Assembly: GCA_041651115.1 (NCBI GenBank)
Contig: JBAZJY010000002.1
Span: 73,846-137,845, forward strand
DNA: 64,000 nucleotides
Direction: 5' to 3'
From: Candidatus Omnitrophota bacterium
Lineage (GTDB): Bacteria; Omnitrophota; Gorgyraeia; Gygaellales; Profunditerraquicolaceae
The translations under genes were made by a program, and so were the position numbers. Shown piece after piece: positions 9,001 through 61,752 of the stretch. Numbering within the stretch: position 1 is the first letter of the stretch; each line of letters starts with the position of its first letter. The notes under the pieces are model-generated. The model saw only the letters and a program-made list of their open reading frames with translations, was not told where the DNA came from and made no database searches.

Positions 9001-9159
9001 GATATCTTAAGACTGGAAGAAGAGCGGGTTGAGGAAACCGATCCGCAGTTAAGACAGTTGGTCATGGTGCTTGAATCGGATAAGCCGGCAAATGAGATGC
9101 AGCTGGCAGTAGCCGCGATCTCGTTTTCCGCGAAAGATCCGGTTCTGGTGAAACCTTAA
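1..9159 (+). CDS. Giant multidomain protein, 5'-partial (frame open from nt 1; >3,050 aa). It has two GHKL/HATPase_c ATPase modules, an HExxH zincin-like motif, a vWA domain with a DxSGS MIDAS motif, and SSP-punctuated modules with internal signal-peptide-like segments.
   Basis: Frame 1 is open from nt 1 to the TAA at 9157-9159; the ORF track starts it at an in-frame GTG at 94. HATPase_c N/G1/G2 boxes are visible twice (NLIGNAIDAV..DNGGGIS..GGTGRGLALCKE at ~1290-1540; NLITNAVDEA..GTGLGLALIEEIVKEHGG at ~2440-2770). HEAAH lies at 4078-4092, DYSGSV at 7387-7401, and SSP junctions at 1667, 2864, 3506, 4649, 6179, 8078 and 8712. Confidence 0.7.
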   Translation, partial: NEYASELIRELIIPKLTREINTSKKYASLRQVYYSLILAQWFKAKFNSGSGKYENLINRKNLSGLTSQIFWDKQFYFQQYQDSFNKGEYNLKENRSTPFGQTIRTYMSGGLTLGNEISSAIQAQTIASKRSSSPLANKTFNQAAEIDANGNIRIAEGSVSAQEENIAILHALINQGPKAFLSGEKGDENRDRVIGIAEKFDFYVEELLDEEDEEDFFEYVLGLEKLLKLNPRVHQEPSEMFVHLDNLSHNLGHINNLFNIAIISFNKVDEVELRTGQMNMYLAEYQAIRKLLSWDGLNKINPEAVSDLFTDTIRYVVGSRALFKEIGDILNSNRDMIREKEEGLYSLIDGYLERARLVDSECTHNLGILKRLKEEIYEPGKKEPINIGVSVYEAIEPYLHNGHRVKFITDFRDQGMMVQANALRLSYTWTNLIGNAIDAVNKFKRTPEGRGVDGILTVSVRPVHTENTDIMEVSFQDNGGGISKAMSENDRLFLRGESDKQGGTGRGLALCKEAAEFHGGTISVEPRRVSEFDDRPEKTEDPKRGARFVIRLPVVASSPVAISEIAQKDSDKITREDKAAMLNHARQMDFYVQRIEEENDSQNLKAYATALAILEKEGVKPAEGVYAGKQIDFNIVSHDIGHMIIEMTVLLGILELVPVENDPAGYKKRALELWAKIQAWQAILDWEKTLGIAPGILSRMTEEIGSDLDSVGNFYNEVKDYFNRHVDSEIVADYSAAVDLRRGEREIIDFLLSELKNNISDPSRAAAIDEKFIINKLVWSYEKLKSANLNFQLRLRAENLQTYGNPLRVYSIFKNLITNAVDEAAGLATGSKFVKTPSGKFTEVRLTDEQKRTVEENKTIIIANKNIKEGDKDYAEFSIENIAYITPEMNAELYGGRKLFAKGQTGKESGTGLGLALIEEIVKEHGGSVDYYIKDIPGDDTLKKIQFVVKLPAVSSSPVSGDKVILSTAGTTISLSSGDQARIVSEFRRLANQITTEFSEEDFRESMGLIVGTHENGAYRITRLVPITEFEKGSSYDFLLPGKAQVIRIIENELRSGEQILGDYHNHSYERLRSFQKPGPSSEDAMGGGYLNIIGYENKIANNRLNIVLEPELDLDKITMDELANFDPSNSRVILYPYISPNRGLERRIIELDKIYLDALTKEVNSGATSSPMKLGDLKKLALGAMMAFYLSCLSFHNVNAQVNDTPAIDYYFTVSSQLQDSINNLVKKEFYDIVSLSPDQIKQLLTAKDLTEFKSVAESMLEKKGLSLPYYAPEDIADLVSSSKTGDSDIQRLIRIKGGLNYLSQHHPWVFRFVMFNAQRIIFDFTYNKSGGYENERKIYYGVLLDNYAIEEIAAFLAHEAAHSFLELMGMPVGGAAGESVAIYLGDLILKNANIRLGADKFILNLSSEAANRGHWGPWQDAYYEETYNKAGIELRDHLRHLEFITKLPATLLDIIIFGSKDQWEIYPEYRRLGLDALGEILESVESQPVETKEFFGVLFANYFDELWNAGDGLYRELIRAYLLKNTNYIPAAKQRLILDEVGNAQVDASSPVKAAGFLKTTALLSMLFFLPVFVQQSFSQSARAPTNVEMTIYMSRVKDLSEAKDLGSLLKIIKDDKAHALFKMQAMDAVQRMPMVMNKASDLMRALGAIEDIYNDPQTSNLINGNTVSWLEQIMKKYEIIWWGGKDTLFAPIDVYKGTAELIQQIAADHPDFIKPGSLAEFISRQRQPQLLYKPWPHYPVYQNPQFIAGVQKYNADTREYYSISMAVYDLLNLAGVGLSDTTISQATDYIMQQRQAFGQRVFFDKETTAIFIVTEGEESQKDVDLLRGIALDAGVLEENIHIFRGMKDKRKLATLISESTGPLTIATNMEGNEASWRMDPEGNQLSYAEFAKWLEARSILTNVNIILDGCLSTNLTEGMINLLYDPYDPASKAAAIRRGLPTVVSTSDDNHPSYADQQGQSFFYSELSLMPRVPGKPLLGRQILDTEIAGYKRMFVLENPRVSVFLPLEGREELDHIFGGKTKWGKVWFFPIGQAEPKTDTLKPDGLLALGPKETVTSSPLKAGGFFKTAALVSMLVLLPALGQPLFGQQAELLSTDAQGRAEFKNNVSLTLASLGGAVDITAAAEADRPRTYNYNPQTGMLEITYAIPGYVNVSKPNDVVTITARKIVPQFALITDESGSQDKEAMTEQGRQFARVLQFIQNRYPGMRNIRISTVTDPNPQVSSYSGAADAQDYFNQPVFQSDPLLGATHFVEAVRNTIKSFNNSAPGIILAASSDFEQDPLARGSDPVKPEDLRAPFYEMAGELEELNTHLFIATQNADSQKNIRILTDEYLKKCEAEGKAPYIHYQVVGAENMSAAFTSFIAESDFPEQIPLPTQNKDIKIDFLSSGPGGQDASGAVNPQQGSLAGSIKINGSTLVLKDLFKGLGDVDSAQVVFSYEPLIVPLPLTHTPQDIYLVKDYSGSVRDIKWNAFLKDLLIKLKERGDRIIGGTFFGPEVISVAGFDGVLSAVESPRGGYTHGWAALKKIFQQMDDMPDNATLYFISDGVFNDRDFTDGEKERVKEKFLQKLKDKNIRFVWIAPEKASPGVTKFLSNAVNNGKAADNLRASLSPYATLLTFAVATNPDRGVVFYKNEDTISGLAEATGLYSRKVIDVPEKFPIRQVQILFQDEGKEKRIVVDMQDTEEKPGSSSPITELSGQLPEEEAAQLEIPFVYPQNAPTVILPLKLNGADKKELMEYKGTLEILKAKLSNYLEHPEYLKDKGKLESVLPIAKEAISEFLGKVAAADKLRPVYDTFARADFDAPINTDFGDQFNGFVAYVQMGINQLDSQGSISSRLILSLITTLTQTIEFLENAILIFEKLTGPSKSEFKTKLSNGGSGSPSVLILDLNDLLSSVGSEISSPVKTEATNDKGGIDFRALPVVTQPVLGTVLSQGEKRPQMGTLLPWTENRPSLDQELQQIRKMIDSGIVPSSERIKEYAQTCGSQDIDKILSCIADILRLEEERVEETDPQLRQLVMVLESDKPANEMQLAVAAISFSAKDPVLVKP

Positions 9160-9957: not shown

Positions 9958-10905
9958 ATGACCTGGACAAAAAAAGATCTATTGGGCCTGGAATACCTAA
10001 GCCGCGAAGAACTGGAATTGATCCTGGCAACCGCGGAATCCTTTAAAGAAGTTTCCAGCCGCGAGATCAAAAAAGTCCCTGCCTTGCGCGGAAAGACCGT
10101 AGTGAATTTATTCTATGAGCCGTCTACGCGCACAAGGGTTTCTTTTGAGGTTGCCGCAAAAAGGCTGTCTGCCGACGTAATTAATATTGCCACGGAAACT
10201 TCCAGCGTAAAGAAAGGAGAAACGCTTATTGATACGGGTAAGAACATACAGGCGCTCAAGGCGGATATTATCGTGATGCGCCATAATTATTCCGGAGCAG
10301 CGGCAATGCTGGCGCGCAGCCTTGATATCAGCGTAGTTAATGCCGGAGACGGCTGGCATGAGCATCCTACGCAGGCGCTGCTGGATATTTTTACCCTGAA
10401 GGAAAAACTGGGAAAGATCGCAGGTTTAAACGTAACCATTGTTGGAGATATCGCCCATTCCCGCGTTGCCCGTTCAAACATCTGGGGTTTGACTAAGCTG
10501 GGCGCAAAAGTAACGGTTTGCGCCCCGGCCATGATTATCCCGCCGGCAATTGAGCAAATGGGGGCTTATGTTACCAGTGATATTGATAAAGCGCTTGCCT
10601 CTGCCGACGCAGTGAATGTCTTGCGCATGCAGTTTGAGCGCGATGAACAAAATGCCTTTCCAAAACAGTTGGAATATTTTAAGAATTTCGGGATCACCGT
10701 TGATCGCTTGAAAAAAGCAAAGAAAGACATCATCGTCATGCATCCCGGCCCGATCAATCGCGGCATTGAAATGTCCAGTGAAGTTGCAGACGGCGCCAAT
10801 TCCGTAATTTTAGAGCAGGTGACCAACGGCATTGCCGTGCGCATGGCAGTGCTTTTCTTGGTTGCCCAGGCAAGAGAGAAGGGTAATGCAAAAAATACTG
10901 ATTAA
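9958..10905 (+). CDS. pyrB: Aspartate carbamoyltransferase catalytic subunit.
   Basis: STRTRVSFE and HPTQALLD motifs; 315 aa. Confidence 0.92.
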   Translation: MTWTKKDLLGLEYLSREELELILATAESFKEVSSREIKKVPALRGKTVVNLFYEPSTRTRVSFEVAAKRLSADVINIATETSSVKKGETLIDTGKNIQALKADIIVMRHNYSGAAAMLARSLDISVVNAGDGWHEHPTQALLDIFTLKEKLGKIAGLNVTIVGDIAHSRVARSNIWGLTKLGAKVTVCAPAMIIPPAIEQMGAYVTSDIDKALASADAVNVLRMQFERDEQNAFPKQLEYFKNFGITVDRLKKAKKDIIVMHPGPINRGIEMSSEVADGANSVILEQVTNGIAVRMAVLFLVAQAREKGNAKNTD

Positions 10906-13652: not shown

Positions 13653-14105
13653 ATGACTAAGAAAATCATAGGGGTAATTGGCGGAAGACAGTGTAATAAG
13701 GAAGTGGAGCAAACAGCCATAAAATTAGGCAAAAAATTGGCTAAAGTGGCTGATTTACTTGTTTGTGGCGGTTTAAGTGGAGTAATGGAGGCGGTAAGCA
13801 AGGGTTTTAAGGCTGCAGGAGGCACAACCATAGGTATTCTACCGGGTTACCACAAGACCGAAGCTAATTCTTTTGTTGATATAGTCATTCCTACGGGAAT
13901 GGGATTAGCAAGAAATGTGCTGGTGGTCAAGGCAGCCGATGTTGTAGTAGCCTTGCCCGGAGAAGCAGGTACGCTTTCTGAAATCGCCTATTGCCTGCAA
14001 TTCGGCGTTCCCGTAGTAAGTTTTAATTCCTGGGATATCCCCGGCGTGATCAAGGCCAAAACTATTGAGCAAACAATCAAAGAAGTCAGGAAAAAGTTAA
14101 AATGA
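13653..14105 (+). CDS. LOG / TIGR00725-family Rossmann-fold protein (predicted nucleotide 5'-monophosphate nucleosidase-like).
   Basis: GGxxGxME core ([12 protein letters not shown]) and PGExGTLSE motif; 150 aa. Confidence 0.6.
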
Positions 14106-15724
14106 AAAAGAAAGTGATTATCTTAGGTGGCGGCCCGAACCGGATCGGCCAGGGCATTGAATTTGATTACTGCTGCTGCCACGCTTCCTATGCGCTTGAG
14201 GAAGAAGGCATTGAAAGTATTATGGTCAACTGTAATCCCGAGACCGTATCCACGGATTACGATACCTCTGACCGGCTGTATTTTGAACCGATAACAATAG
14301 AAGACGTGATGAACATTGTTGAATTGGAAAAGCCGATCGGCTTGATCGTGCAATTCGGCGGCCAGACCCCGCTTAACCTGGCAGTCGGCCTGCGCAAGTT
14401 GGGCGTGAATATCCTCGGTACCAGCGCAGACAGCATAGACATTGCCGAAGACCGTAAACGTTTTAAAGAAATGCTCCACAAGCTAAGCCTGTTGCAGCCG
14501 GATAACGGCACGGCGTTTAATTTCAAAGAGGCCGAAGCAGCGGCAAAGCGGATCGGTTATCCGGTGCTGGTGCGGCCTTCCTATGTGCTCGGCGGCAGGG
14601 CAATGGAGATAGTTTATGACGAATCTATGCTGGAAAAATTCATTGCCGAGGCGGCGCGGGTATCGGGCGAACATCCGGTATTGATCGATAAGTTCCTTGA
14701 AGATGCCATTGAAGTTGACGTGGACTTGATCGGCGACGGAGAAACTTTTGTCATCGGCGGGATCATGGAGCATATTGAAGAAGCGGGGATCCACTCCGGA
14801 GATTCGGCAATGGCCTTGCCGACATTTACCCTCTCCGGCGGGATTTTAAATAAAGTCAGGCAGGCAACATACGAAATGGCAAAAGAACTTAAGGTCAGAG
14901 GCCTGATGAATGTCCAGTATGCGGTTAAAGACGATAAAGTCTATGTGCTGGAGGTTAACCCGCGGGCATCGCGCACCGTTCCGTTCGTGTCTAAGGCGAT
15001 CGGCGTGCCACTGGCAAAACTGGCGACTAAAGTAATGATGGGGAAAAAACTAAAAGACTTCAAGTTTACCAAAGAAATTATCCCGGATTACTTTTCCGTT
15101 AAAGAATCGGTTTTCCCCTTCAGCCGCTTCTCCGGAGTAGATGTGATCCTGGGACCGGAAATGAAATCCACCGGAGAAGTAATGGGCATAGACAGTGATT
15201 TTGGCAGGGCGTATATCAAGAGCCAGTTGGCAGCCGGCCAGGATCTGCCGGTCAAGGGAAATGTTTTTATCTCGGTAAGAGACCGCGATAAGCGCGCGAT
15301 AGCTTTTATCGCTAAAAAACTACAAGACCTGGGATTCAAGATTCTTGCTACCTCCGGCACAGCTTCGGCGCTGGAGAAAAATGGCATTAAAGTCAAGGTC
15401 CTGCGTAAGATCGCCGAGGGCAGGCCGAATATATTGGATCTAATGAAAGACGGGAAGGTTCAGCTGGCGATCAACACGCCTTCAGGCAGGGTGCCGCGCC
15501 AGGATGAAGTGGCCATCCGTTCGCGCGTTATTCGTTACGGCATACCTTATACCACGACGATTTCCGGCGCCCAGGCAACTACAAATGGCATTGAGGCGCT
15601 GATGAAAAGGGGCCTGGATGTAAAGCCGCTGCAGGAATACCATAAAAAAATCAAAAGTCAAAAATCAAAAGTCAAAACAAGATGGCCTAAGGAAGATAAA
15701 AATGCCGGAACTTCCAGAAGTTGA
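14102..15724 (+). CDS. carB: Carbamoyl-phosphate synthase large subunit, C-terminal half (second ATP-grasp plus MGS-like domain). This is a split carB.
   Basis: Starts [28 protein letters not shown], which is the second repeat of CarB. An MGS-like domain (ILATSGTAS) sits at the C-terminus. The low-complexity tail overlaps fpg. Confidence 0.85.
15646..15673 (+). repeat. Tandem 14-bp duplication (AAAAATCAAAAGTC x2, 28 bp) in the carB 3' tail.
   Basis: Read directly. Removing one copy restores a TAA at 15688-15690 ahead of the fpg RBS. Confidence 0.6.
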
Positions 15725-16518: not shown

Positions 16519-17211
16519 ATGAAAAAACGTATTAAGATAAACGGAGTCATCATTTTTATCTGCGTCATCGCAATGATGCTTTTTCCTAATGTATTTTTGC
16601 GCATGAGCTTCAACAAGATAGATATTTTAACGGGCATACTAGGATTAGAGCTTATGTTTTTCGGGCTGCTGCTAAGGGTTTCCAGCCGCGGTTATAAATC
16701 CGAACTTTCCGTAGGGGGCAATAATCTTGTGCGCACCGGCCCATACTCGTTAGTAAGGAACCCGATGTACCTGGGTATTTGTTGCATTGCCCTCGGTATT
16801 ATCATGGTGCTATTCCAGTGGTGGACGCTGGCCGTATTCGGTATATTTTTTGCGTTGCGTTACCTTACCTTGATCCGGGTTGAAGAGAAAGGCCTTCTTG
16901 AAAAATTCGGACACCGTTACAGCGAATATCAGAAAGACGTGCCGCGGATATTGCCCAGGCTGAACACGCGGCTGAATAAGGACCTGCTGAATTGCCTGCC
17001 GTTAAAGCTGAGCTGGATAAAAAAAGAACTGAACAGCATTTTGATCATTGTCCCGGGGGTCTTAGGCATTGATATGTGGAAGAAATTCATATTATGCGAA
17101 AACGACCTCGCGCTGCCGTATTTTTTGATCCTTAGCTGGATAATCTGCGCGCTGATTGTCCTGGCAGCTGTTCTGGTAAAAAATTATGAAGGCTACCCAA
17201 AGCAAAAGTAA
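16519..17211 (+). CDS. Isoprenylcysteine carboxyl methyltransferase (ICMT) / phospholipid methyltransferase-family membrane protein.
   Basis: Multi-TM protein with the RTGPYSLVRNPMYLG family motif. Confidence 0.65.
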   Translation: MKKRIKINGVIIFICVIAMMLFPNVFLRMSFNKIDILTGILGLELMFFGLLLRVSSRGYKSELSVGGNNLVRTGPYSLVRNPMYLGICCIALGIIMVLFQWWTLAVFGIFFALRYLTLIRVEEKGLLEKFGHRYSEYQKDVPRILPRLNTRLNKDLLNCLPLKLSWIKKELNSILIIVPGVLGIDMWKKFILCENDLALPYFLILSWIICALIVLAAVLVKNYEGYPKQK

Positions 17212-17998
17212 GATCTTAAGCAATTTAAAAATATCCGGGAACTATTTTAAGCTCCAGGTTATCTGTCCTTGCGTTGCTGCTGCAGCTCGGCCCGGGCAGT
17301 TTGTGATGGTGCAGGTGAATAACGGCATTGAGCCGCTGCTGCGCCGGCCGCTGGGCGTGCATAGGCTTCCGGGGCAGAAAAAAAATATCGTAGAGCTGCT
17401 TTATGAAGTTGTGGGCAGGGGAACAGGTCTTCTTTCACGCAAAAAGCCAGGCGAAAGCATAGATATTATCGGCCCGCTGGGCAATGGCTTTGATTATGGG
17501 CCAGCCTACGGCCGGTACAGGCCGCAGGTTTTGGTAGCCGGGGGAATGGGGGTAGCGCCGTTAACTTTTCTTGCAGAAAAGTTAACGGAAGGCAAAAGGC
17601 AAAAGGCAAAAGGCAAAATTATAGTTCTGCTTGGGGCAAAGACCAAAGATCAGATTCTTTGTGAAAAAGAATTCAAAAAAATAGGTTGTGAAGTGAGGAT
17701 TGCTACCGATGATGGTTCGCGTGGATTTAAGGGCAGAGTTACCGATTTATTGAACCGCGAATTACGCACCACGGATTACGCACCGTGGACTATTTATGCC
17801 TGCGGGCCAGGGCCGATGTTAAGGGCAATATCCTGTTTGTCAAAAGACCGCAGCCTGCCTGCGCAGCTTTCTTTGGAAGCGCATATGAGCTGCGGCTTTG
17901 GCGCCTGTTTAGGCTGCGTGGTTAGTACTACCGGCGGATATAAAAGAGTATGTAAAGAAGGCCCGGTTTTTTCGGCCGAGGAAATTATCTGGGAATAA
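17186..17998 (+). CDS. pyrK: Dihydroorotate dehydrogenase electron-transfer subunit.
   Basis: FAD/NAD-binding fold with a C-terminal 2Fe-2S cysteine cluster CGFGACLGCVV. Confidence 0.85.
   Translation: MKATQSKSKILSNLKISGNYFKLQVICPCVAAAARPGQFVMVQVNNGIEPLLRRPLGVHRLPGQKKNIVELLYEVVGRGTGLLSRKKPGESIDIIGPLGNGFDYGPAYGRYRPQVLVAGGMGVAPLTFLAEKLTEGKRQKAKGKIIVLLGAKTKDQILCEKEFKKIGCEVRIATDDGSRGFKGRVTDLLNRELRTTDYAPWTIYACGPGPMLRAISCLSKDRSLPAQLSLEAHMSCGFGACLGCVVSTTGGYKRVCKEGPVFSAEEIIWE
17591..17618 (+). repeat. (GGCAAAA)x4 heptanucleotide tandem repeat inside pyrK.
   Basis: Read directly. It encodes KRQKAKGK in a linker that is longer than in typical PyrK. Confidence 0.8.
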
Positions 17999-18011: not shown

Positions 18012-18371
18012 ATGACCCAAATAGCTTATATTCTTCTGGGTTTGGCTGCCGGGATCTTCGGCGGAATGTTCGGCATCGGCGGAGGCGCGATCCTCGTTCC
18101 TGCGCTGGTATACGTTTTCGGCCTGACGCAGCATCAGGCGCAAGGGACAACCCTGGCAGTAATGATTCCGCCGATCGGGCTGCTGGCGGCAATGCGTTAT
18201 TATTACGGCGGCAATGTAAAGCTGGGCATGGCAGGGTTTATTTGCGCTGGGTTTTTTATCGGCGGCCTGATCGGCGCCAACTTTGTGCAGGGCATATCTG
18301 CTCCACTGTTGAAAAAGCTATTCGGCACGTTCCTTCTGGTGGTGTCTTTGCATATGGTCATCGGAAAATAA
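18012..18371 (+). CDS. Half-size TSUP (TauE/SafE, DUF81) membrane protein with a single 4-TM repeat.
   Basis: GxGGG motif (FGIGGGAILVPAL); 119 aa, whereas canonical members are about 250 aa. Confidence 0.6.
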   Translation: MTQIAYILLGLAAGIFGGMFGIGGGAILVPALVYVFGLTQHQAQGTTLAVMIPPIGLLAAMRYYYGGNVKLGMAGFICAGFFIGGLIGANFVQGISAPLLKKLFGTFLLVVSLHMVIGK

Positions 18372-18372
18372 T

Positions 18373-19314
18373 ATGAAAACAAAAATTTCCGTTAATATCG
18401 GCAGGCTCAAATTAAAGAACCCGGTAATGGTTTCCTCCGGCACTTTCGGGTATGGGGAAGAATTCTCCGATTTTGTTGAGCTGAAAAAAATCGGGGCGAT
18501 CGTATCCAAGACCATCACTTTGAATCCGCGTAAAGGAAATCCTCCGCCGCGTACCTGCGAAACCCCGGGCGGCATGCTTAATTCCATTGGCCTGGAAAAT
18601 CCCGGGTTAAACGCATTTATCGGCGATAAACTGTCTGTTTTAGTTAAGACCGGAGCGCCGGTAATCGTGAGTATCGCCTCGGAATCCGGCATTGCTGAAT
18701 TTGTAAAATTGGCAGGATGCCTGGATAAGTTGAAAGAGGTTGCGGCAATAGAAGTAAATATATCCTGCCCGAACGTGCGAAGCGCAAAGCGTATGGCCAC
18801 CAGCGCTAAATTGATTTCGCAGGACCCCAAGGCAACCTATGAGACGATCAGGGCAATACGCAAAGTTACGGGAAAAACATTGATCGCTAAACTTTCGCCG
18901 AACGTTACCGATATTTCCGAGATTGCCCTTGCCAGTGAAGCGGCAGGCAGCGATGCAGTAAGCTTGATAAATACCTTGACCGGGATGAGTATTGACGTGG
19001 ATACGCGTAAGCCGAAGATCGCCTGCGTTACCGCAGGCTTGAGCGGCCCGGCGATCCGGCCGATTGCCGTAAGGATGGTCTGGGAGGTTTATCGCGCAAT
19101 AAAGCTACCGGTGATCGGCATGGGCGGCATTAACGATGTGAATAGCGCTTTAGAATTTCTCATTGCCGGAGCAAGCGCCGTGAGCATAGGCACGGCCAAT
19201 TTCATTAATCCCGGGGTAGCCGAAGAAATCATTTCCGGCCTCGGGCGATTTATGGTAAAAAATAAGATAACTGACATTAAGCAGCTTATCGGGAGCGTGA
19301 AGCTTGAAAAGTGA
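18373..19314 (+). CDS. pyrD: Dihydroorotate dehydrogenase catalytic subunit (class 1B).
   Basis: NPVMVSSGTFGYG N-terminus and TIM-barrel FMN motifs (GMGGI). Confidence 0.9.
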   Translation: MKTKISVNIGRLKLKNPVMVSSGTFGYGEEFSDFVELKKIGAIVSKTITLNPRKGNPPPRTCETPGGMLNSIGLENPGLNAFIGDKLSVLVKTGAPVIVSIASESGIAEFVKLAGCLDKLKEVAAIEVNISCPNVRSAKRMATSAKLISQDPKATYETIRAIRKVTGKTLIAKLSPNVTDISEIALASEAAGSDAVSLINTLTGMSIDVDTRKPKIACVTAGLSGPAIRPIAVRMVWEVYRAIKLPVIGMGGINDVNSALEFLIAGASAVSIGTANFINPGVAEEIISGLGRFMVKNKITDIKQLIGSVKLEK

Positions 19315-19981: not shown

Positions 19982-20590
19982 ATGGCAGAAGAAATCAAAA
20001 ATCTGATTGAGAAGATCCACAGCGAAGGAATACAGGCAGCTGAAGCCAAGGCCGCAGAGATTGAAAATAAGGCAAGAGAAGAAGCAGATGCCATCGTGAG
20101 CCGGGCAAAAGAAGAGGCGGAGGCAATGCTTTCCGCAGCCAAGGAACGGATCTCGCGCATGGAAGAAAAAAGCAAAACCCTGCTTACCCAGGCAGCAAGA
20201 GACCTCCTGCTTTCTTTGCGAAAAGAGATCAATGCTGTTTTGGGCCGCCTGGTCAACGCAGATGTGCGTTCTGCGTTAAACCCGGATGCGCTGCAAAGAA
20301 TAATCCTGGAGATGGTCAAGAATTATCCCGGAGGCCAAGAACAGGAAATTGTAATTTCCTTAAAGAAAGAAGATGCCGAACAGTTACAAAAACATTTCTT
20401 GGGCCGTCTCAAGGAAGAAACAAAGAGAAATATCGTGATCAAGCCTTCGGAAGATATCCTCGGCGGCTTTACTATCAGCTTTGACGCGGGAAAATCCCAA
20501 TTTGATTTTACCGATAAGGCGCTGGCAGAATACATCAGTTTATATCTTAAGCCGAATTTAAGCGGGATACTTAAAGAAGCGACTTCCTAA
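19982..20590 (+). CDS. atpE: V-type ATP synthase subunit E.
   Basis: About 200 aa, highly charged and helical (AEAKAAEIENKAREEAD..), positioned at the operon head. Confidence 0.7.
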   Translation: MAEEIKNLIEKIHSEGIQAAEAKAAEIENKAREEADAIVSRAKEEAEAMLSAAKERISRMEEKSKTLLTQAARDLLLSLRKEINAVLGRLVNADVRSALNPDALQRIILEMVKNYPGGQEQEIVISLKKEDAEQLQKHFLGRLKEETKRNIVIKPSEDILGGFTISFDAGKSQFDFTDKALAEYISLYLKPNLSGILKEATS

Positions 20591-20591
20591 A

Positions 20592-21125
20592 ATGAATTCT
20601 AATTACGTTTATTTGATTTCTCAATTGCCAATGCTGCATTTTAACGCAAAGCCGGCGCTTTCTTTTGAAAAGTTCATGGAGCTTTGCCAACGATTCATCC
20701 CGGAAAAAGACGCGCAGCGTCTAAGCAGCCTGCCGCAGCCGGATAGCTATGCCGGATCCAAGGAACAAGATCCGGTTATCCGGCAGTGGATTGACTTTGA
20801 CCTGTCTTTAAGGAACGACTTGGCAAAGATCCGCGCCAGCCGCAGGCATGTTGACCCTGCGGCCTACTTACGCGCCGGCGGCTTACGTGACGGCAGCGTA
20901 ATGCATGTTGTTAATGCCGCTCAAAGGAACCCTTCTCCTTTGGAAGCGGAGAGATTGCTTGATGAAGCAAGGTGGCATGAACTGGACGAGTTGGAAGCGG
21001 GCCGGTTTTTTGACTTTGGGGCTTTGGTGATCTACGCGTATAAATTGATCATCCTTATCCGCTGGGAAAAGATAGGCAGCGCGGACAAAGAAAAGATATT
21101 TGAAGAAACTCTTGTTAAAAATTAA
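20592..21125 (+). CDS. Hypothetical protein occupying the position of the conserved DUF2764-like gene in Chlamydia/spirochaete-type V-ATPase operons.
   Basis: Sits between atpE and atpA. No recognisable motif. Confidence 0.35.
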   Translation: MNSNYVYLISQLPMLHFNAKPALSFEKFMELCQRFIPEKDAQRLSSLPQPDSYAGSKEQDPVIRQWIDFDLSLRNDLAKIRASRRHVDPAAYLRAGGLRDGSVMHVVNAAQRNPSPLEAERLLDEARWHELDELEAGRFFDFGALVIYAYKLIILIRWEKIGSADKEKIFEETLVKN

Positions 21126-21138
21126 GGCGGGCTAAAAG

Positions 21139-22875
21139 ATGCGAGAAATAAGAAAAGGAAGGATTACGAAGATCAACGCTAACATGGTAAGCGCGCAGTT
21201 CAGCGACTTTGTCATGCAGAATGAAGTCGCTTATATTATCCACGGCCAAGAGCGCTTAAAAGCGGAAATCATCCGCGTGCGCGGCAACTCCGCGGAGATG
21301 CAGGTTTATGAAGCCACTACCGGCTTGAAACTCGGCGAAGAAGTTGAGTTCAGCGGAGAGCTGCTTTCCGTGGAATTGGGGCCGGGGTTACTGGGTCAGA
21401 TCTTTGACGGCCTGCAGAACCCACTTCCTTTGTTAGCGCAAAAATGCGGATTTTTCTTAAAACGCGGTATTTATATGGATCCCCTGGAAGACAAGCAGGA
21501 ATGGGAATTTACCCCGCTGGTTAAGCCGGGAGATAAGCTGCGCGCCGGAGAAAAGATCGGTTTTGTCCCGGAAAAAATATTTAAACATTATATCATGGTG
21601 CCGTTTGCTTTATCCGGCGTATTTGAAGTGGTGAATATTGCCGCGGCAGGCAAATATAATTTAAAGCAGCCGGTCGCGCAAATAAAGGACCAGAATGCCA
21701 AGGTTTTTGATATTTGCCTTTCCCAGGTCTGGCCGGTAAAGATGCCGATCAGGGCCTATGCGGAAAAACTCAGGCCGCAGGAGACTCTGGTTACCAAAAT
21801 GCGCCTGATCGATTCGCTCTTCCCGGTTGCCAAGGGCGGGACCTATTGCATCCCCGGCCCGTTTGGCGCGGGAAAAACCGTGCTGCAGCAATTGACCAGC
21901 CGCCATGCGGAAGTCGATATCGTGATCATTGCCGCATGCGGCGAACGCGCCGGAGAAGTCGTAGAAACTTTGAAGACCTTTCCGGAGATAACCGACCCGC
22001 GCACCGGCAAGCCATTAAGCGACCGCACGGTAATTATCTGTAATACCAGCTCTATGCCTGTGGCTGCCCGCGAATCAAGCGTTTACACTGCCGTAACCAT
22101 TGCCGAATATTACCGCCAGATGGGGCTGAATGTCCTGCTTCTGGCTGATTCCACGTCGCGCTGGGCGCAGGCAATGCGGGAAATGTCCGGCAGGCTGGAA
22201 GAGATCCCCGGCGAAGAAGCATTCCCCGCGTACCTTGAATCGCGCATTGCTTCTTTTTATGAAAGGGCAGGTCTGGTGCGGCTTTATGACGGCACAACCG
22301 GTTCAGTTACTATCGGAGGCACAGTCAGCCCGGCAGGCGGAAACTTTGAAGAACCGGTAACCCAGGCAACGCTAAAGGTCGTGGGCGCTTTTCACGGCCT
22401 TTCCCGGGAACGCTCCGATGCCAGAAGATACCCGGCAATCGACCCTTTGATCAGCTGGAGCAAGTATAAAAGCTTCATTTCCGATGACCGGGTCGCCTCC
22501 GGGCACGGTATCTTGCGTAAGAGCCATAATGTGGCGCAAATGATGAAGGTTATCGGCGAAGAAGGCACTGCCCTGGCCGATTACACGGATTATCTTAAGG
22601 GAGAATTTTTTGATTTTGTCTACCTGCAGCAAAATGCGTTTGACGCGGTGGATGAAGCCTCAGCCAAAGAACGGCAGGCATATATATTTGATTTTATCTA
22701 CGGGATCCTGAGCGCGGAACTTGTTTTTAAAGACAAAGAAGACGCGCTGCGTTTCTTCCAGAAATTACGTCAGCTTTTTAAAGGCTGGAACTCCGCCGGC
22801 TGGGAAAGCAGGGAATTCCATGAGGCGGAGGCGGAAATAAATAGTTTATTGAAAGAGAAAATAAAGGAAAAATAA
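21139..22875 (+). CDS. atpA: V-type ATP synthase catalytic subunit A.
   Basis: Walker [10 protein letters not shown]; 578 aa. Confidence 0.92.
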
Positions 22876-22876
22876 T

Positions 22877-24169
22877 ATGCAAAAAGTTTATACCAATATC
22901 ATCCAGATCGCCGGAGACGTGGTTACGGTTGAAGCGGAGGGGGTAGGGTATTCGGAGATTGCCCAGATCTTTACCCGCAACAGCGTTTCTTTGGCGCAGG
23001 TTATCCGTCTCGACGGGAAAAAGGTATTTTTACAGATCTTTGCCGGCAGCCGCGGAGTTTCCACCGGGGACAAGGTAAGGTTCTTAGGCCATGCCATGCG
23101 CGTTGCCAGCGGCGCAAATCTTCTAGGCCGCGTTTTTAACGGCAGCGGCCTGCCTTTGGATAACGGGCCGCAGCTGACAGACGAGATGATCGAGATCGGC
23201 GGGCCGCCGGTAAACCCGGTAAAAAGGATCATCCCGCGTAAAATGATCCGCACCGGTATCCCGATGATTGATGTTTTTAATTCGCTTGTCGAGTCGCAGA
23301 AACTGCCGATCTTTTCCATTGCCGGCGAGCCGTATAATGAATTGCTGGCGCGCATTGCCGTGCAGGCGGAAATCGACATCATTATCCTCGGCGGCATGGG
23401 CCTGAAATACGACGACTTCCTTTTCTTCCGCGATACGCTTGAAGAGCACGGCAGCCTTTCGCGCTCGATCATGTTCGTGCATACGGCAGCTGACCCGACA
23501 GTAGAGTGCCTGCTGGTGCCGGACATCAGCCTGGCAGTGGCGGAAAATTTTGCGCTGCAGGGGAAAAGGGTGCTTGTGCTTTTGACCGATATGACTAATT
23601 TCTGCGATTCTTTAAAAGAGATCGCCATTACCATGGAGCAGATCCCCTCTAACCGCGGATATCCGGGCGACCTATACAGCCAGCTTGCCAGCCGTTATGA
23701 AAAGGCAGTGGATTTTGACACTGCCGGATCGATCACCATCCTGGCGGCAACTACTATGCCCGGAGACGACGTCACGCATCCTGTCCCGGATAATACCGGC
23801 TACATTACCGAGGGCCAGTTTTATTTAAAGAACGGCGTGATCGAGCCTTTTGGGTCCTTAAGCCGTTTAAAGCAGCAGGTAAACGCTAAAACCCGCGACG
23901 ACCACCGGGTGATCATGGATATGATGATCCAGCTTTTTGCCAGCTACCGCGAAGCGCTGGAAAAACAATCCATGGGTTTCCAGATGAGTGCCTGGGATAA
24001 AAAGCTTCTGCAATACGGAAAGCTTTTTGAAGAAAAAATGATGTCTTTAAAAGTGAATATCCCTCTGGAAAAGGCGCTTGACCTGGGTTGGCAAATCATG
24101 GCAGATTGTTTCCAGCCTGAAGAAACCGGCATCAAAAAATCCATGATCGAGAAATATTGGCCAAAATGA
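22877..24169 (+). CDS. atpB: V-type ATP synthase subunit B.
   Basis: Degenerate P-loop region, A/B-family fold, 430 aa. Confidence 0.9.
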
Positions 24170-25482
24170 AGCCTTTTATTATCTCCTGTCTTGTGGTTTT
24201 ATCGTTTCTACGCATTCCTGCTTTTGCCGGCGAGGAAGATAAGCTTAACAAGGCCTGGCAGCATATCGCTGTAAATCGTCTATTTAGCCAGCAGCTTAGT
24301 TCCGAAGAAGCCATAGTCTGGCACCTTGATTATAATGGTTTTGCCGCGCTCGTTCCCGGCTGCCTGATGATTTTTGATTACGATAATGAAACCCCCGCTC
24401 CGCAGAATGATAAGAAATCCGAAACCGGCATTGTGGAAAGCCTGCTTACGGGAGTGATCAACCCCGAAGAAATCAAGGACCAGCCCGTAATATTTTTCTT
24501 TTCTCATGAGCATCCGGCGGAAAAGCTGATCAAACTGCTTAAATGGAAGGATGCGATCAAGGATGTGCTTTTTGTTTTGCCGGAGGGAATCTATTTAAAA
24601 TATGAGGAGCAAATCAAGGAGCTCAAGCAGGCAGACAGCGCCGATTTAAATAAAAAAGACGTTTTTAGCGTGATTAAACGCGTACTGCCAAACCACACAT
24701 ATGTTGTTAAGGGCAATACTATTTCAGTGCTTGAGCAGCAGGCGCCGCATCCGGGCGTGGAGTTTATCGTAGAGACTGCCAACGGCCTTACCATATATCA
24801 TTCGGGCTCCCTTCTCTGCCGGCATTGCCCGGATGTAGAGAACGAACGCATAGCCCTGGCAGTTTATTCGGACCTGCGCAGCCCCGCCGGAAACATTTTT
24901 CTGGCTGGTAACTGCGCTATCCCGGAATACGACATCGGGATAATCGGCGTAAGCGGGTTTAAGCCGGGGGGTTTTGAGGCAGAGATAGCCGGGCGGATAA
25001 AAGAGAAAAACTATTTATTGGAGAAAGATAAATTCTTTACCGAAAGAAATCCGTATTTTTGGGCTGATCTGGGAAATTTGCTTTGGGTTGAGCATGAAAC
25101 CAGCGCGATCAACGATTATTTCAAAAAAATAAAAGGCAATCCGGACATATTAAAGGACATAAAAAACGCCGTAGTCAGGAGATACGCCGAGTACATGGAT
25201 GACGTAAGACAATATTGCAGCCTGGAGACAACGCCCGATGAATGCGATGAGAAAATAAGCTACCGGAAATACGGAGGGATTTTTTATACCTTTAGTTCTG
25301 ATGTCCCAAGCTTTGCCCGGGGAGAATGCTTTCTTTTCAGCGCCGGCCATAAACCGGCCGGCGGAGAATACTTTTCCGGCTATTGGTCTTCCGAGGGATG
25401 GCCGTTATTCCCGCCAAACAGCATTTTATGGGATATTTTCCAGGAACATGGAATTAAGGATGTAGGCGATAATGAAAATTAA
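24166..25482 (+). CDS. Secreted hypothetical protein inserted within the V-ATPase operon.
   Basis: N-terminal signal peptide [21 protein letters not shown]. No recognised domain. The ATG overlaps the atpB stop (ATGA). Confidence 0.5.
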
Positions 25483-26086
25483 ATTAACTAAAGGCGAGTT
25501 AAAGCGGCAGCGCGATGCGTTAAGGCAATATCAGCGTTATCTGCCTACCTTACAGTTAAAAAAACAACAATTGCAGCTTGAGATCCTGCAGCAGCACAAT
25601 TTGCTGGAGGAAAGAAAACATGCCCTGGCAGGAAAAAAGAAGGCGGCGGCCAGCTGGGCCGGCTTGATCGTCGAGCAGAAGGAGGGCCTGCGTAATTTTA
25701 TTTTTCCGGAACGCGTGGCTACCGGCCAAAAAAATATTGCCGGAGTGGACATCCCGGTTTTTGAGAAACTTGAATTTAAGGCAGCGGATTATGATCTATT
25801 CCTTGAGCCTCTCTGGTTGGACGCGGCAATAGAGGCACTAAGGCAGATCGTCTCGCTGCAGGAAGAAATGAAGGTAATGGAAAAAGGCGTGGATATCTTA
25901 AAGCGTGAGCTACGCATCACCACGCAGCGGGTCAATTTGTTTGAGAAGGTAAAGATCCCCGAAGCGGAAGAGGCGATCAGGCTGATCAAGATCTATATCG
26001 GAGACCAGATGGCTAATGCCGTGGGCCGCTCTAAGATCGCCAAGGCAAAGATAGAAGCGAATGTTTTAGAGGAGGCACTGGTATGA
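25472..26086 (+). CDS. atpD: V-type ATP synthase subunit D.
   Basis: [36 protein letters not shown]-terminus. Confidence 0.85.
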   Translation: MKIKLTKGELKRQRDALRQYQRYLPTLQLKKQQLQLEILQQHNLLEERKHALAGKKKAAASWAGLIVEQKEGLRNFIFPERVATGQKNIAGVDIPVFEKLEFKAADYDLFLEPLWLDAAIEALRQIVSLQEEMKVMEKGVDILKRELRITTQRVNLFEKVKIPEAEEAIRLIKIYIGDQMANAVGRSKIAKAKIEANVLEEALV

Positions 26087-27852
26087 TCGTACCGATGAAA
26101 AAAACCACGGTCATTACCCAGCATAAAGATGCGCAGGAGGCTGTCGGGCAGCTGCGTAAACTCGGGCTGCTGCATGTTGAACACCAAAAGCCGCCGCAAA
26201 GCCAGGATATAAACATCCTGCAGGAAGATGCCGGATTAGTTAATGCCTGCCTTGAAGTTTTTGGCCAGGCTGGCTGCCAGGCAAATAATGTTATTGCTAA
26301 AACAGGGCTCGTTGATTGGAAAATAAAAGCAAGGCACGTTGTTGATTTATGGAAAAGATACGGCCACCTTGGTGATTTTTCAAATACGCTCAAGCACCAG
26401 ATCAATGAATGGCGGAAATGGGGTGATTTTGACCTGCAGAGATTACAGGAACTCCAGCAAAAAGGCATTTACCTTAAATTTTATCAGGTTCCTATCCGTC
26501 AACTAAAAGAATTCCCCCGGGAGGTTGTTATAGAGCAGGTATTTGTTACCGGAGGGCTTGCGCATTGCGTGGCGATTTCCACAAATAAATTTGAAGTGCC
26601 GTTCAAGGAGGTTAGCCTGCCTAAGCTGAGCCTTTCCGGGATGCTTGCCAAGCTTGAGGAAGATGAAAAAACGATGCAGGCGATAAAAAATGAGATCTGT
26701 CTTGCCGTAAGTTATGTCCCGGAGCTATTGGAGGTAAAAAAGAAGCTGGAAAAAGAGATTGAGTTCCAGCAGGCATTGGCAGGCATGGGAGAAAGCAGGG
26801 CAGTCGTTTATTTAACAGGATATATTCCGCGGGAATGCGAAGGCAAGATATTGGCAGAAGCAAAAATAAAAAAGTGGGGCATCTTGATCAGCGACCCGCA
26901 AGAAGATGATAATGTGCCGGTTTTGATCCGCAATCCCCGGTGGGTTTCTATTATCAGCCCAGTTTTCCGCATGTTGGAGATCGTGCCGGGGTATCGGGAA
27001 ATGGACATTAGCCGGTTATTTTTGGTATTCTTCGGTATCTTCTTCGGTATGTTAATCGGAGATTCCGGTTACGGCTTGATCTATGCAGCCGTCACTTTTT
27101 GGGCGCAGAGGAAGTTCGGTAAAAAAGTATCCAATAAAGCGATGTTTTTCCTCTTTTACGTTTTGAGTTTTTGCGCTATCATATGGGGGCTATTGACAGG
27201 AACATTTTTCGGGCAAGCCTGGTTATTGAAAGCCGGATACAGGCCGTTAATACCCGCCTTAAACGACGTAAAAAATATACAGGCATTTTGTTTTTTTCTC
27301 GGTGCACTACATCTTACATTAGCGCACTCATGGCAGGCGGCAATAAAGTTCCCTTCCTTAAAGGCGCTGGCCGACATCGGCTGGGTCTGTATCCTCTGGA
27401 CCGCTTATTTTCTGGCAAATGCGCTTATTTTAGGAGATGCTTTTCCGGGCTTCGGAAAGTGGCTGGTTAGCTGCGGCATCAGCCTCGTAGTTTTATTTAC
27501 CAGCCCGCAAAAAAATCTTTTAAAAACGATCGGCAGCGGGTTGGGGACTCTGGCGCTCAGCCTGATGAATAATTTCACCGACGTGGTTTCTTATGTGCGC
27601 CTTTTTGCCGTAGGCTTGGCAGGCGTAGCGATCGCCGATACTTTTAATTCTATGGCCGGCGGAGTTGTTTCCGCGAACTTTTTTTCGCTGTTATTGGCGG
27701 GGGTGATCATTCTGGCGGGGCATTTGTTAAATCTTTTACTGGGGCCGATGTCTGTTCTGGTGCATGGGGTGCGGCTTAATGTGCTGGAATTCAGCAGCCA
27801 CGCAGGCGTATCGTGGAGCGGGACAGCGTATAAGCCGCTCAAGCAGGATTAA
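26083..27852 (+). CDS. atpI: V-type ATP synthase subunit I (a-subunit; membrane).
   Basis: Soluble N-terminal half followed by a C-terminal multi-TM domain; 589 aa. Confidence 0.8.
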   Translation: MIVPMKKTTVITQHKDAQEAVGQLRKLGLLHVEHQKPPQSQDINILQEDAGLVNACLEVFGQAGCQANNVIAKTGLVDWKIKARHVVDLWKRYGHLGDFSNTLKHQINEWRKWGDFDLQRLQELQQKGIYLKFYQVPIRQLKEFPREVVIEQVFVTGGLAHCVAISTNKFEVPFKEVSLPKLSLSGMLAKLEEDEKTMQAIKNEICLAVSYVPELLEVKKKLEKEIEFQQALAGMGESRAVVYLTGYIPRECEGKILAEAKIKKWGILISDPQEDDNVPVLIRNPRWVSIISPVFRMLEIVPGYREMDISRLFLVFFGIFFGMLIGDSGYGLIYAAVTFWAQRKFGKKVSNKAMFFLFYVLSFCAIIWGLLTGTFFGQAWLLKAGYRPLIPALNDVKNIQAFCFFLGALHLTLAHSWQAAIKFPSLKALADIGWVCILWTAYFLANALILGDAFPGFGKWLVSCGISLVVLFTSPQKNLLKTIGSGLGTLALSLMNNFTDVVSYVRLFAVGLAGVAIADTFNSMAGGVVSANFFSLLLAGVIILAGHLLNLLLGPMSVLVHGVRLNVLEFSSHAGVSWSGTAYKPLKQD

Positions 27853-60195: not shown

Positions 60196-61752
60196 ATGGT
60201 TAAAATCAAGCGGGCGTTGATCAGCGTGTCGGATAAAACGGGAGTATTGGAACTGGCAAAAACCTTGAATAAATTCGGCGTGGAAATTCTTTCTACCGGC
60301 GGCACGGCAAAAATGATACGCGACCACGGTATTGCGGTAAAAGAAGTATCCGAGTACACCGGATTCCCCGAAATGTTAGACGGCAGGGTAAAGACCCTGC
60401 ATCCGCGGATCCATGGCGGCTTACTTGCCTTAAGAGACAAAGAGGAACATATGCGCGCATTAAAAAACCATGATATCGGCCTGATTGATATGGTGGTGGT
60501 TAACTTATATCCCTTCGAGCAAACGATCAATAAACCCGGGGTAACCATTGAAGAAGCCATTGAGAACATTGATATCGGCGGTCCGAGCATGCTGCGCTCT
60601 GCGGCAAAGAATGCCAGGTCAGTGGCAGTAGTCTGCAATCCTTCGCGCTACGGCCAGATCATTGATGAGCTGAATAGAAATGACGGCTATCTTCCTACGA
60701 AACTGATGCGCGAGTTAGGTCTGGAGGTATTTAAGACAACCAGCCATTATGACGGGATAATCTATAATTATTTTAAAAATCAATATGATCCGGGAGTAAA
60801 AAGCGCATTCCCTGCTCAAATGTCCATTAGTTTTGATAAACTGCAAGACCTGCGTTACGGCGAGAACCCGCATCAAAAAGCAGCCTTTTATAAGTTGGCA
60901 AACGAGGCAGCAGGATTGACTGCAATGAAGCAGCTTTGGGGTAAAGAGTTGTCGTTTAATAACATCCTTGACCTGAATGCCGCGGTAAATATCGTCAAGG
61001 AATTCGCGCTTCCGGCAGTAGTATTCATTAAACACAATAATCCCTGCGGCGTTGCCGAAAATAAAGATATGCTTAAGGCATACCGCGATGCCTGGAGCTG
61101 TGATAAGCTTTCCGCATTTGGCGGGGTATTAAGCATTAATAGAAAGGTTGATCTTGCTTTGGCAAAGTTAATTGCCAAGAGCGGGTTCCTGGAATGTATT
61201 GTTTGCCCGGGCTTTGTCCCGAATGCGCTTGAACTATTAAAAGCCAAGAAAAATTTAAGGCTTTTGGAACTTCCGGGCATGCTGGACAAGACCGCAGGCC
61301 TTGATTTTAAAAAAGTAAACGGCGGCTTATTACTGCAGGATGAAGATAGCCTGACGCTGGACGAGAACAACCTGAAGGTGGTAACTAAAATAAAGCCGAC
61401 AAAAGCGCAGATGGAATCACTCCTCTTTGCCTGGAAAGTGGCAAAACACGTTAAGTCAAACGCGATTATCCTTACCCGCGGCACAAAGACTGTGGGTATT
61501 GGCGCAGGCCAGATGTCGCGTGTTGATTCGGTATTTATCTCCACGAAGAAAGCCGGCAAATTAGCCCTTGGCTCTGTGCTTGCTTCAGACGCCTTCTTTC
61601 CCAAAGAAGACGCGATCCAACTGGCTGCCAAATACAAGATCAAGGCGATCATTCAGCCGGGCGGCTCCATTGCGGATGAACAGATCATCAAAATGGCTGA
61701 TAAACACAAGATCCCGATGGTTACAACCGGCATCAGGCATTTCCGCCACTAA
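60196..61752 (+). CDS. purH: Bifunctional AICAR transformylase / IMP cyclohydrolase.
   Basis: MGS-like N-terminus (ALISVSDKTG..LSTGGTAK) and the AICARFT domain; 518 aa. Confidence 0.92.
   Translation: MVKIKRALISVSDKTGVLELAKTLNKFGVEILSTGGTAKMIRDHGIAVKEVSEYTGFPEMLDGRVKTLHPRIHGGLLALRDKEEHMRALKNHDIGLIDMVVVNLYPFEQTINKPGVTIEEAIENIDIGGPSMLRSAAKNARSVAVVCNPSRYGQIIDELNRNDGYLPTKLMRELGLEVFKTTSHYDGIIYNYFKNQYDPGVKSAFPAQMSISFDKLQDLRYGENPHQKAAFYKLANEAAGLTAMKQLWGKELSFNNILDLNAAVNIVKEFALPAVVFIKHNNPCGVAENKDMLKAYRDAWSCDKLSAFGGVLSINRKVDLALAKLIAKSGFLECIVCPGFVPNALELLKAKKNLRLLELPGMLDKTAGLDFKKVNGGLLLQDEDSLTLDENNLKVVTKIKPTKAQMESLLFAWKVAKHVKSNAIILTRGTKTVGIGAGQMSRVDSVFISTKKAGKLALGSVLASDAFFPKEDAIQLAAKYKIKAIIQPGGSIADEQIIKMADKHKIPMVTTGIRHFRH

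Follow-up and report, generated by a model that had tools for sequence, protein, structure and literature searches.

Why should two biosynthetic genes of one bacterium each carry, well inside the coding sequence, a perfect run of four heptanucleotides, a unit whose gain or loss by one copy would shift the reading frame? The question is raised by a 64,000-nt stretch of DNA from a Candidatus Omnitrophota bacterium (the window; contig JBAZJY010000002.1, positions 73,846 to 137,845 of the forward strand), in which pyrK, for the dihydroorotate dehydrogenase B electron-transfer subunit, contains (GGCAAAA)x4, and folC, for a folylpolyglutamate/dihydrofolate synthase, contains (GGTGTCA)x4. A first reading of the sequence (the original prediction) had noticed both runs, had set a repeat in the carB tail beside them, and had asked whether their shared length of 28 bp is a coincidence or the mark of slippage. 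Our computational analysis favors, with a probability of about 0.75, an origin by slippage seeded by microhomology, followed by a reading-frame filter that lets through a gain of three units, and by the tolerance of protein loops for the product. The tracts belong to a mutational signature of the whole lineage; they are not a device peculiar to pyrK and folC, and for these two genes themselves they are probably functionally neutral.

Perfect heptamer tracts in pyrK and folC

The three tracts of the window are the following:

17589-17618, + strand: pyrK heptamer tract, (GGCAAAA)x4.3, perfect period 7, 30 nt, 4.29 copies, with GGCAAAA x4 at 17591-17618
62033-62063, + strand: folC heptamer tract, (AGGTGTC)x4.4, perfect period 7, 31 nt, 4.43 copies, with GGTGTCA x4 at 62034-62061
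15646-15677, + strand: carB tail tract, (AAAAATCAAAAGTC)x2.3, 14-mer unit, 32 nt

The pyrK and folC tracts are the only perfect repeats of the 64-kb window with a unit of at least 5 nt and at least 3 copies, and together with the carB tract they are its three top-scoring Tandem Repeats Finder (TRF) arrays. Both are head-to-tail copies of a unit in the 5-11 nt range, far above chance (a single run with at least 23 period-7 matches is expected about 2e-9 times in 64 kb), and they are thereby long simple sequence repeats (SSRs). The scan of the window located (GGCAAAA)x4 exactly where it had been predicted in pyrK; (GGTGTCA)x4 exists in folC, but at 62034-62061, about 10 nt away from the 62044-62073 first assigned to it. 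The length of 28 bp holds for all three tracts as a count of four whole units, but not as a run length, since the periodic runs measure 30, 31 and 32 nt. The carB tract, first described as 14 bp x2, is indeed a 14-mer array (x2.3), but its 32 nt follow no obvious logic of one copy plus three; it can also be read as period 7 x4.6, with 88% identity and A/G alternating. The units differ among the three tracts, and no unit is common to two loci.

The tracts occupy loops that exist in a basal and an expanded form

The pyrK tract codes for G136-K144 (GKRQKAKGK). In the AlphaFold2 (AF2) model of PyrK (mean predicted local distance difference test score, pLDDT, 80.5) residues 135-144 form a coil that links helix 120-134 to strand 145-151. 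The folC tract codes for G95-R104 (GVRCQVSGVR), and in the FolC model (mean pLDDT 84.4) it lies in a coil (95-111) with a pLDDT below 50 at residues 101-106. Both tracts had been proposed to be in-frame insertions relative to typical homologs, and this was confirmed. The window PyrK is longer by 7 amino acids (aa) than the short-loop Omnitrophota orthologs and, in a HMMER alignment, by 5 aa than the solved homolog 4ylf, and 15 residues at the site of the folC tract are missing from the Thermotoga maritima FolC (1o5z). None of the non-Omnitrophota FolC sequences fetched has the insert, and all of them read R(I/V)NGxPISxEE; the loop between RIL and DFEG is Omnitrophota-specific and variable in an alignment of 120 homologs.

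The length of these loops changes in steps. At the PyrK site, orthologs have a loop of 8 aa (e.g., KLKLSKPL, KIKNRKAL) or of 15 aa, and in the alignment of 120 PyrK homologs the span P125-G150 measured 17, 24 or 31 residues in 19, 71 and 3 sequences, respectively. At a different position of FolC, the span 213-219 had 5, 12 or 19-21 residues in 49, 28 and 9 of the 120 aligned sequences. Deletion of three units from the window pyrK leaves KLTEGKII, which equals the 8-aa basal loop, and the same deletion in folC leaves RIL-GVRQGG-DFEG, near the shortest ortholog loops, as expected if one ancestral copy had been joined by three added copies (21 nt, in frame).

The 15-aa PyrK loops are encoded by tandem heptamers, with GGCAAAA, AGTCAGG, GTTCAAA, GGTTACA, GCTCCAC, AAATCCC, TTCACAA, AGCTTTC, GGTGTAA or AGCGTAT as the unit, and these ten units are mutually unrelated in sequence; octamer arrays at the same site give 16-aa loops. 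At the FolC site, other lineages have clean arrays of AAATCAA, AACCGAC and AGCTCCC. Orthologs that carry the insertion therefore carry heptamer DNA repeats, usually of another unit, and not the same peptide without a repeat, which would have spoken against the original prediction. The inserted peptides of homologs are often periodic in 7 residues (NPKSQIP-NHKS, TPNSKLQ-TPNS, GARRKAQ-GARR and VPSTEYR-VPST in FolC; an example from PyrK is IKNQRAKIK), as the translation of a heptamer repeat would give.

The carriers of GGCAAAA-type units share about 55-61% core identity among themselves, and their closest relatives hold other units or lack the insert; P0042 (GGCAAAA), for instance, is 81% identical to P0005, which has a CTCAAAA-type unit, as inferred from its peptide RKTQSSKLK. 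We considered whether the identical (GGCAAAA)x4 tracts go back to one recent common ancestor, and rejected this on these grounds. Since the carriers are not each other's nearest relatives, the expansions are recurrent and local.

In one lineage the PyrK N-terminus is built from (AATATCA)x4.3, which is translated as MNIKYQISNIK (L081 1202-1231 and L163 1141-1175). This lineage also has an identical (GGCAAAA)x4 at the loop site of the window, and its PyrK is about 56% identical to that of the window.

Could the repeats have been selected for a function, as a flexible charged loop of set length or as a nucleic-acid site (for a cold-shock-type protein, or for a translational pause)? The expanded state is in the majority at PyrK site 2 (71/120 homologs), many PyrK inserts are Lys-rich with the pattern xK.QK.Kx, and a weakly specific binding of heptamer repeats has been reported for CspB (PMC4679880). 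The tracts are also enriched in A and C (0.34 and 0.29, versus 0.29 and 0.20 in the background), but this bias is expected as well from a filter for hydrophilic, stop-free loop residues. Furthermore, the units, and hence the peptides, are unrelated between lineages at one and the same site, the insert is missing from 19/120 PyrK homologs and from all non-Omnitrophota FolC, and the AF2 models show a low-confidence coil. Selection on a peptide, moreover, would not yield a perfect periodicity in the DNA, and we consider this explanation unlikely.

Four copies are the modal state in related Omnitrophota DNA

As a surrogate for a scan of the source genome, 1.28 Mb of related Omnitrophota DNA was analyzed, with 0.66 Mb from other phyla as controls. 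The material consisted of 80 folC-centered loci from GTDB genomes, about 30 of them Omnitrophota-like and about 50 from Chloroflexota, Planctomycetota and others (the controls), and of 80 pyrK-centered metagenome contigs, all Omnitrophota-like. Perfect repeats with a unit of at least 5 nt were counted from 3 copies upwards, unless a copy class is stated:

Omnitrophota folC loci, 453 kb: heptamers, 10 of 12 repeats
Omnitrophota pyrK loci, 774 kb: 39 heptamers, 6 octamers, 1 pentamer, 3 hexamers (one locus), 1 decamer, 1 dodecamer
Controls, 659 kb: 1 heptamer

Heptamers are thus over-represented relative to other long units at the level of the lineage, and the load of heptamer (and some octamer) expansions in the Omnitrophota relatives is well above that of the other phyla sampled. 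Perfect period-7 tracts of the copy classes 2.x, 3.x, 4.x and 5.x numbered 58, 13, 32 and 3, a non-monotonic series with none longer, versus 10, 1, 0 and 0 in the controls. The 4.x class, which corresponds to 28-34 nt, is the modal one among perfect tracts with at least 3 copies (32/48). When imperfect copies were allowed, TRF detected 99 period-7 arrays, 61 of them in the 4.x class and with a length mode of 31-33 nt, as well as 33 period-14 and 28 period-8 arrays; the control counts for periods 7, 14 and 8 were 11, 6 and 5. The recurrence of one length is hence not a coincidence, and where assorted lengths without preference would have undermined the original prediction, a clear preference for 4.x was found. 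Octamers likewise peak at 4.x (4.1-4.5 copies), and no 4.x mode was found for 6-, 9- and 12-nt units in the Omnitrophota DNA. All but about one tract lie within long open reading frames (ORFs) with the frame kept. Tracts of the 3.x class are mostly decayed 4.x arrays, as in L086, where GGTTACA x3.4 is followed by GGTCACC.

The same protein sites are expanded repeatedly

The density of arrays inside pyrK and folC amounts to 588/Mb, compared with 30/Mb in the flanks. In PyrK the recurrent sites are at residues ~100-110, at ~131-145, at ~67 aa from the C-terminus and at the N-terminus, and in FolC at residues ~95, ~214 and ~387. An ORF of ~320-340 aa downstream of pyrK, probably PyrD, has a recurrent site at ~140-154, and the ORF upstream of folC, probably PurH, has one at ~200-220. 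The CarB tail is also recurrent, and one more array was found at residue ~570 of a 1116-aa ORF, probably full-length CarB. These positions, in variable segments, at protein ends and in mid-protein, would correspond to loops, linkers and tails, as modeled at the two window sites.

In the carB product of the window, residue 514 is the last of the profile match, and the tract follows from residue 515 on, in a Lys-rich C-terminal tail. In relatives this tail measures 2-56 aa, is Lys-rich, often ends in KHGKDKxKNK, and frequently holds 7-, 8- or 10-mer arrays, with copy numbers from 3.7 to 6.6. The 14-mer x2.3 of the window belongs to this variable tail, so that its fit to the 28 bp is loose and the rule of one plus three is unclear for it.

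The reading frame is kept, and frameshifted alleles are rare

When the frame of pyrK and folC was checked by tblastn, it was kept in 108/109 related loci, the exception (L020) having an N run at the site. Unit-level variants were detected within the 90% cluster of P0080, with the peptides GKSQKSKGK, GKRQKSKGK and GKRQKAKGK; in the DNA that was read, GGCAAAA x4 and a version with one GTCAAAA were present, and the peptide GKSQKSKGK would imply a version with two GTCAAAA. Split PyrK products in cluster 2 (172 + 137 aa) were considered as a possible tract frameshift and rejected, the split being a scaffold gap of N.

In one related lineage, the FolC loop arrays differ by exactly one 14-nt unit (2.7 versus 3.7 copies) between contigs that have 0-7 mismatches over 1.6-2.7 kb and are 99-100% identical apart from the gap. 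The shorter allele frameshifts folC into a stop (6 contigs, several assemblies of one ENA series), and the loci compared were:

L161 1413-1460 and L162, versus L164-L168: 14-nt folC variant loci

For the frameshifted allele, genuine slippage is one possibility, and a pseudogene, an off-state or a fault in assembly are others. Omnitrophota have been proposed to be host-dependent (PMC10066038), and the allele hints at a possible on/off switching of core biosynthesis in host-dependent nanobacteria. If the tracts were contingency (phase-variation) loci, a change of one unit up or down would toggle pyrK or folC, and hence de novo pyrimidine and folate synthesis. The near-identical strains with a one-unit difference, and the proposed host dependence, would both fit such a role. 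However, the arrays have about 4 copies and lie mid-gene in cytosolic housekeeping enzymes, and, with the related loci taken into account, the tracts do not show the marks of contingency loci, namely both frames in common use, a long tract, and a surface or restriction-modification gene as the host. The frame is almost universally kept, the 4.x mode points to out-of-frame states that are purged and not maintained, and the lone frameshifted allele could itself be a pseudogene or an error of assembly. A switching role for the tracts is therefore, in our judgment, very improbable.

Short tandem repeats are prone to mis-assembly, and the N run of L020 sits at the FolC loop, so that a sequencing or assembly artefact has to be weighed too. 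The tracts of 30-32 nt, however, are below read length and below the largest assembly k-mers, equivalent in-frame tracts recur at these loops across dozens of assemblies, made independently in different projects and with different assemblers, and the reading frames are intact; an artefact is scarcely credible. The N run of L020 (~10290-10390), in a genome that is a GTDB representative, falls precisely on the FolC loop, where the segment that bears the repeat coincides with a gap or a masked stretch.

Probable origin by slippage from microhomology seeds, filtered by the reading frame

The extent to which the tracts run past four whole units is informative about their origin. For overhangs of 0 to 6 nt in the 4.x class, 1, 2, 6, 11, 3, 7 and 2 tracts were counted, with a mode at 3 nt, whereas chance extension alone predicts an overhang of 0 nt in 55% of the cases. 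The ancestral sequence therefore already had a direct repeat of 2-6 nt spaced by 7 nt; in the window the seeds are AA-GGCAA-AA (pyrK) and AGG-TGTC-AGG (folC). Such microhomologies are the expected substrate of slipped-strand mispairing.

We infer that the tracts are young expansions of the microsatellite type, in which replication would slip (stutter) on a stretch of 7 nt with microhomology of 2-6 nt on its flanks. Where a gene is needed, only net gains that amount to three units (+21 nt, +7 aa) would survive, so that 1.x copies become 4.x copies, and survival would be restricted to tolerant parts of the protein, such as surface loops, domain linkers and tails. The step from one to four copies would presumably be taken by reiterated slippage within one replication event, and the resulting 7-aa-periodic peptides would have no specific role. 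The same permissive loops (in PyrK, FolC, PyrD, PurH and the CarB tail) would have been expanded repeatedly and independently from any local heptamer, and the expansions would later decay by point mutation or contract. Slippage would be unusually active, or unusually tolerated, in this group of Omnitrophota. Slippage, a frame filter and tolerance, taken together, would account for the length of ~28-34 nt, for the 7-aa quanta, for the perfect DNA periodicity and for the diversity of the units.

Several observations weigh against this explanation. A direct jump from one to four copies is unobserved, and a stutter of several units in a single event is assumed, because stepwise gains of one unit would pass through lethal frameshifts. 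The explanation does not account for the strong preference for 7 nt (less so 8) over 5, 10 or 11 nt. Some tail and N-terminal tracts, where the frame matters less, are also 4.x, and they may leave room for an intrinsic length preference. The window organism was sampled once, and the instability was seen in the tracts of relatives only. Finally, the density found in pyrK and folC is biased by ascertainment, both genes having been picked for their window tracts; its ~20-fold excess over the flanks may reflect tolerance and A-rich seeds, and, despite the ascertainment, the expansions do recur in other lineages, where the units are different.

A further possibility goes beyond ordinary slippage. 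An Omnitrophota replication or repair activity might stutter in 7-8-nt steps, with at least 3 units per event and possibly with palindromic insertions, and some of the tracts might be on/off switches. If so, protein loops across the phylum would evolve in 7-aa quanta. We regard this as a speculative extension that is unlikely to hold.

Palindromic and other insertions in the same loops

In some members of one 90% FolC cluster, a (GTACCGA)x5 array is interrupted by a 21-nt GC-rich palindrome, CCTGCCTGCCGGTGAGGCAGG. This second type of in-frame 21-nt insertion in the same loops, together with similar palindromes that other lineages have in a PyrK loop and a carB tail, could be taken as the work of a dedicated mechanism of the lineage (an unusual repair activity or primase-polymerase) that inserts quanta of 21 nt, in which case the four copies would be intrinsic and not selected by the frame. 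The tail and N-terminal tracts of the 4.x class could be read in the same way, and so could the intergenic GGGAATC repeats of Xanthomonas, which favor four units (PMC4692102). Octamers, however, add 24 nt and 14-mers 42 nt, which makes the quantum three units and not 21 nt. Moreover, putative intergenic or 5′ tracts vary in copy number (3.0, 3.0, 3.3, 4.3 and 4.4), the carB tail arrays of relatives range from 3.7 to 6.6 copies, and the FolC 350-367 loop moves in 5-aa steps. A dedicated insertion mechanism is thus decidedly unlikely, and slippage under a frame filter is preferred here as well.

Palindromes of ~21 nt with the form CCTGCCTG...CAGGCAGG are inserted in frame within or beside heptamer arrays, in the FolC loop, in the PyrK loop and in the carB tail of relatives, and they encode peptides of the LPAGEAG or PCLSGRQ type. 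Such an insertion makes up a 7-aa difference between FolC proteins that are at least 90% identical. The loci are:

L170 594-614: ~21-nt palindrome
L097 3475-3495: ~21-nt palindrome
L105 7293-7372: ~21-nt palindrome

Longer palindromic elements, resembling repetitive extragenic palindromic (REP) elements or miniature inverted-repeat transposable elements (MITEs), were also observed in frame, in the FolC loop (L013 ~2040-2110, L010 ~1450-1500) and in the PyrK loop (L100), with translations that resemble CVIARSEATKQSQ...IASP and SLPRAQAGLAMTKG. In the window itself, a palindrome CCTGCC...GGCAGG was rejected as part of the finding: it is a single match, with ~0.13 expected by chance, and is unrelated to the tracts.

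The window folC has a second Omnitrophota-specific insert, SAAGGSASGG (62802-62831, residues ~350-360), encoded by two copies of a 15-nt unit (TCCGCCGCAGGCGGA) with internal inverted symmetry. In 1o5z about 10 aa are missing here, the pLDDT is below 50 at residues 352-359, and homologs have loops of 6, 11 or 16 residues at 350-367, i.e., steps of 5 aa and not of 7.

Relation to known repeats

According to the accounts of Mrazek et al. (2007) given in PMC4679880 and PMC4692102, heptanucleotides are the commonest class of long SSRs in most bacterial genomes, replication slippage in bacteria has a known bias towards 7-nt units, and a contact with the polymerase has been proposed to explain the 7 nt; in the summary of PMC4679880, units in multiples of three are the likeliest in coding DNA. 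The Omnitrophota tracts resemble this class in their perfect head-to-tail 7-nt units, in the dominance of heptamers, in slippage as the presumed origin and in a unit that possibly matches the stretch held by the polymerase. They differ in that they are intragenic in housekeeping enzymes, with a unit that changes per locus and lineage, in that the copy number is pinned at 1.x + 3, and in that the same loops recur across the phylum. Full-text literature searches returned no report of heptamer repeats in Omnitrophota; the class is known, and its occurrence in this phylum appears to be unreported.

The dispersed heptamer families of the cyanobacteria Calothrix and Nostoc, of Beggiatoaceae (TAACTGA) and of Xanthomonas (GGGAATC) share with the Omnitrophota tracts a 7-nt unit in arrays of 2-6 copies and, in the case of Xanthomonas, the preference for four units (PMC4692102). 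In those families, however, one unit occurs at many, mostly intergenic, loci, and regulatory or G-quadruplex roles have been proposed, whereas the Omnitrophota tracts are coding and do not share units, and their preference for four units is explained by the frame. Dozens of different units were found in the related loci, nearly all inside ORFs, which is not what a dispersed single-unit family would give.

The contingency loci of host-adapted pathogens also have a non-triplet unit inside an ORF, where a change of one unit shifts the frame, and one related lineage has such an allele. Their tracts, however, are longer, have units of 1-5 nt, and lie close to the 5′ end of genes for surface or restriction-modification functions, with both frames common, whereas those of Omnitrophota have about 4 copies in the middle of genes of core metabolism and an almost always intact frame. 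Selection against frameshifts reportedly limits non-triplet microsatellites in coding DNA, as Metzgar, Bytof and Wills are said to have found in 2000. The tracts obey the same principle, with non-triplet units tolerated in ORFs only for a net change that is a multiple of 3 nt, but here the filter leaves a positive signal (the 4-copy mode and the 7-aa quanta) and not a mere depletion.

The Omnitrophota loops thereby offer a natural experiment in the birth of microsatellites, in which the same enzyme loop has been expanded many times from different seeds with the frame as a visible filter, and in which the 7-nt slippage preference of bacterial replication could become directly measurable. They would also be a case of a lineage-specific mutational bias that shapes protein length in a poorly known, uncultured phylum. 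In practical terms, the heptamer tracts account for unusual low-complexity inserts of 7-aa periodicity in annotated proteins of the phylum. They are also candidates for hypervariable markers in the typing of Omnitrophota strains, and metagenome-assembled genomes (MAGs) may break or frameshift at them.

Host genes and neighborhood

The genes that carry the tracts, and the pyrD gene next to pyrK, are:

17186-17998, + strand: pyrK, dihydroorotate dehydrogenase B electron-transfer subunit, 270 aa; evidence from NCBIfam, Pfam, PDB relatives and position
18373-19314: pyrD, type-1B
61752-63119, + strand: folC, folylpolyglutamate/dihydrofolate synthase, 455 aa, directly downstream of purH
14102-15724, + strand: C-terminal half of carB, 540 aa, profile positions 551-1058 only

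The best NCBIfam matches of the pyrK product are PyrK models (E 3e-61), yet below the curated cut-offs. It matches Pfam PF10418 and PF00175, its PDB relatives are 4ylf, 1ep3 and 5ksw, and, as is proper to PyrK, it has an FAD/NAD-binding domain and a C-terminal 2Fe-2S domain and its gene adjoins a type-1B pyrD. The name pyrK was given because of these best NCBIfam matches, the PF10418 and PF00175 domains and the position beside type-1B pyrD. FolC belongs to its family with 358 bits against TIGR01499 (cut-off 163) and a PDB match to 1o5z (E 2e-63). The exact PyrK and FolC proteins occur once each, in a single Candidatus Omnitrophota MAG contig of 579 kb, and their 90% clusters have one member; the nearest other relatives are at most 63% (PyrK) and 71% (FolC) identical.

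The other genes of the pyr cluster start at 9415 (pyrR), 9958 (pyrB), 10832 (pyrC) and 19304 (pyrF). Between 12212 and 15724, genes from the families TIGR00375 and TIGR00725, and not an N-terminal half, come before the C-terminal half of carB, the final 23 nt of which overlap with the mutM start (15702-15724). A 119-aa membrane-protein ORF (18012-18371) separates pyrK from pyrD and has a weak match to the MamO C-terminus (E 3e-5, far below cut-off). Directly after the pyr cluster, on the same strand, the stretch 19982-27852 holds a cluster of four ORFs that match subunits of a V-type ATPase, with E at 19982, A at 21139, B at 22877 and I at 26083. The first 9 kb of the window are taken up by a single ORF of 3021 aa (94-9159), and giant genes are described for Omnitrophota in a preprint (bioRxiv 10.1101/2023.11.21.568195).

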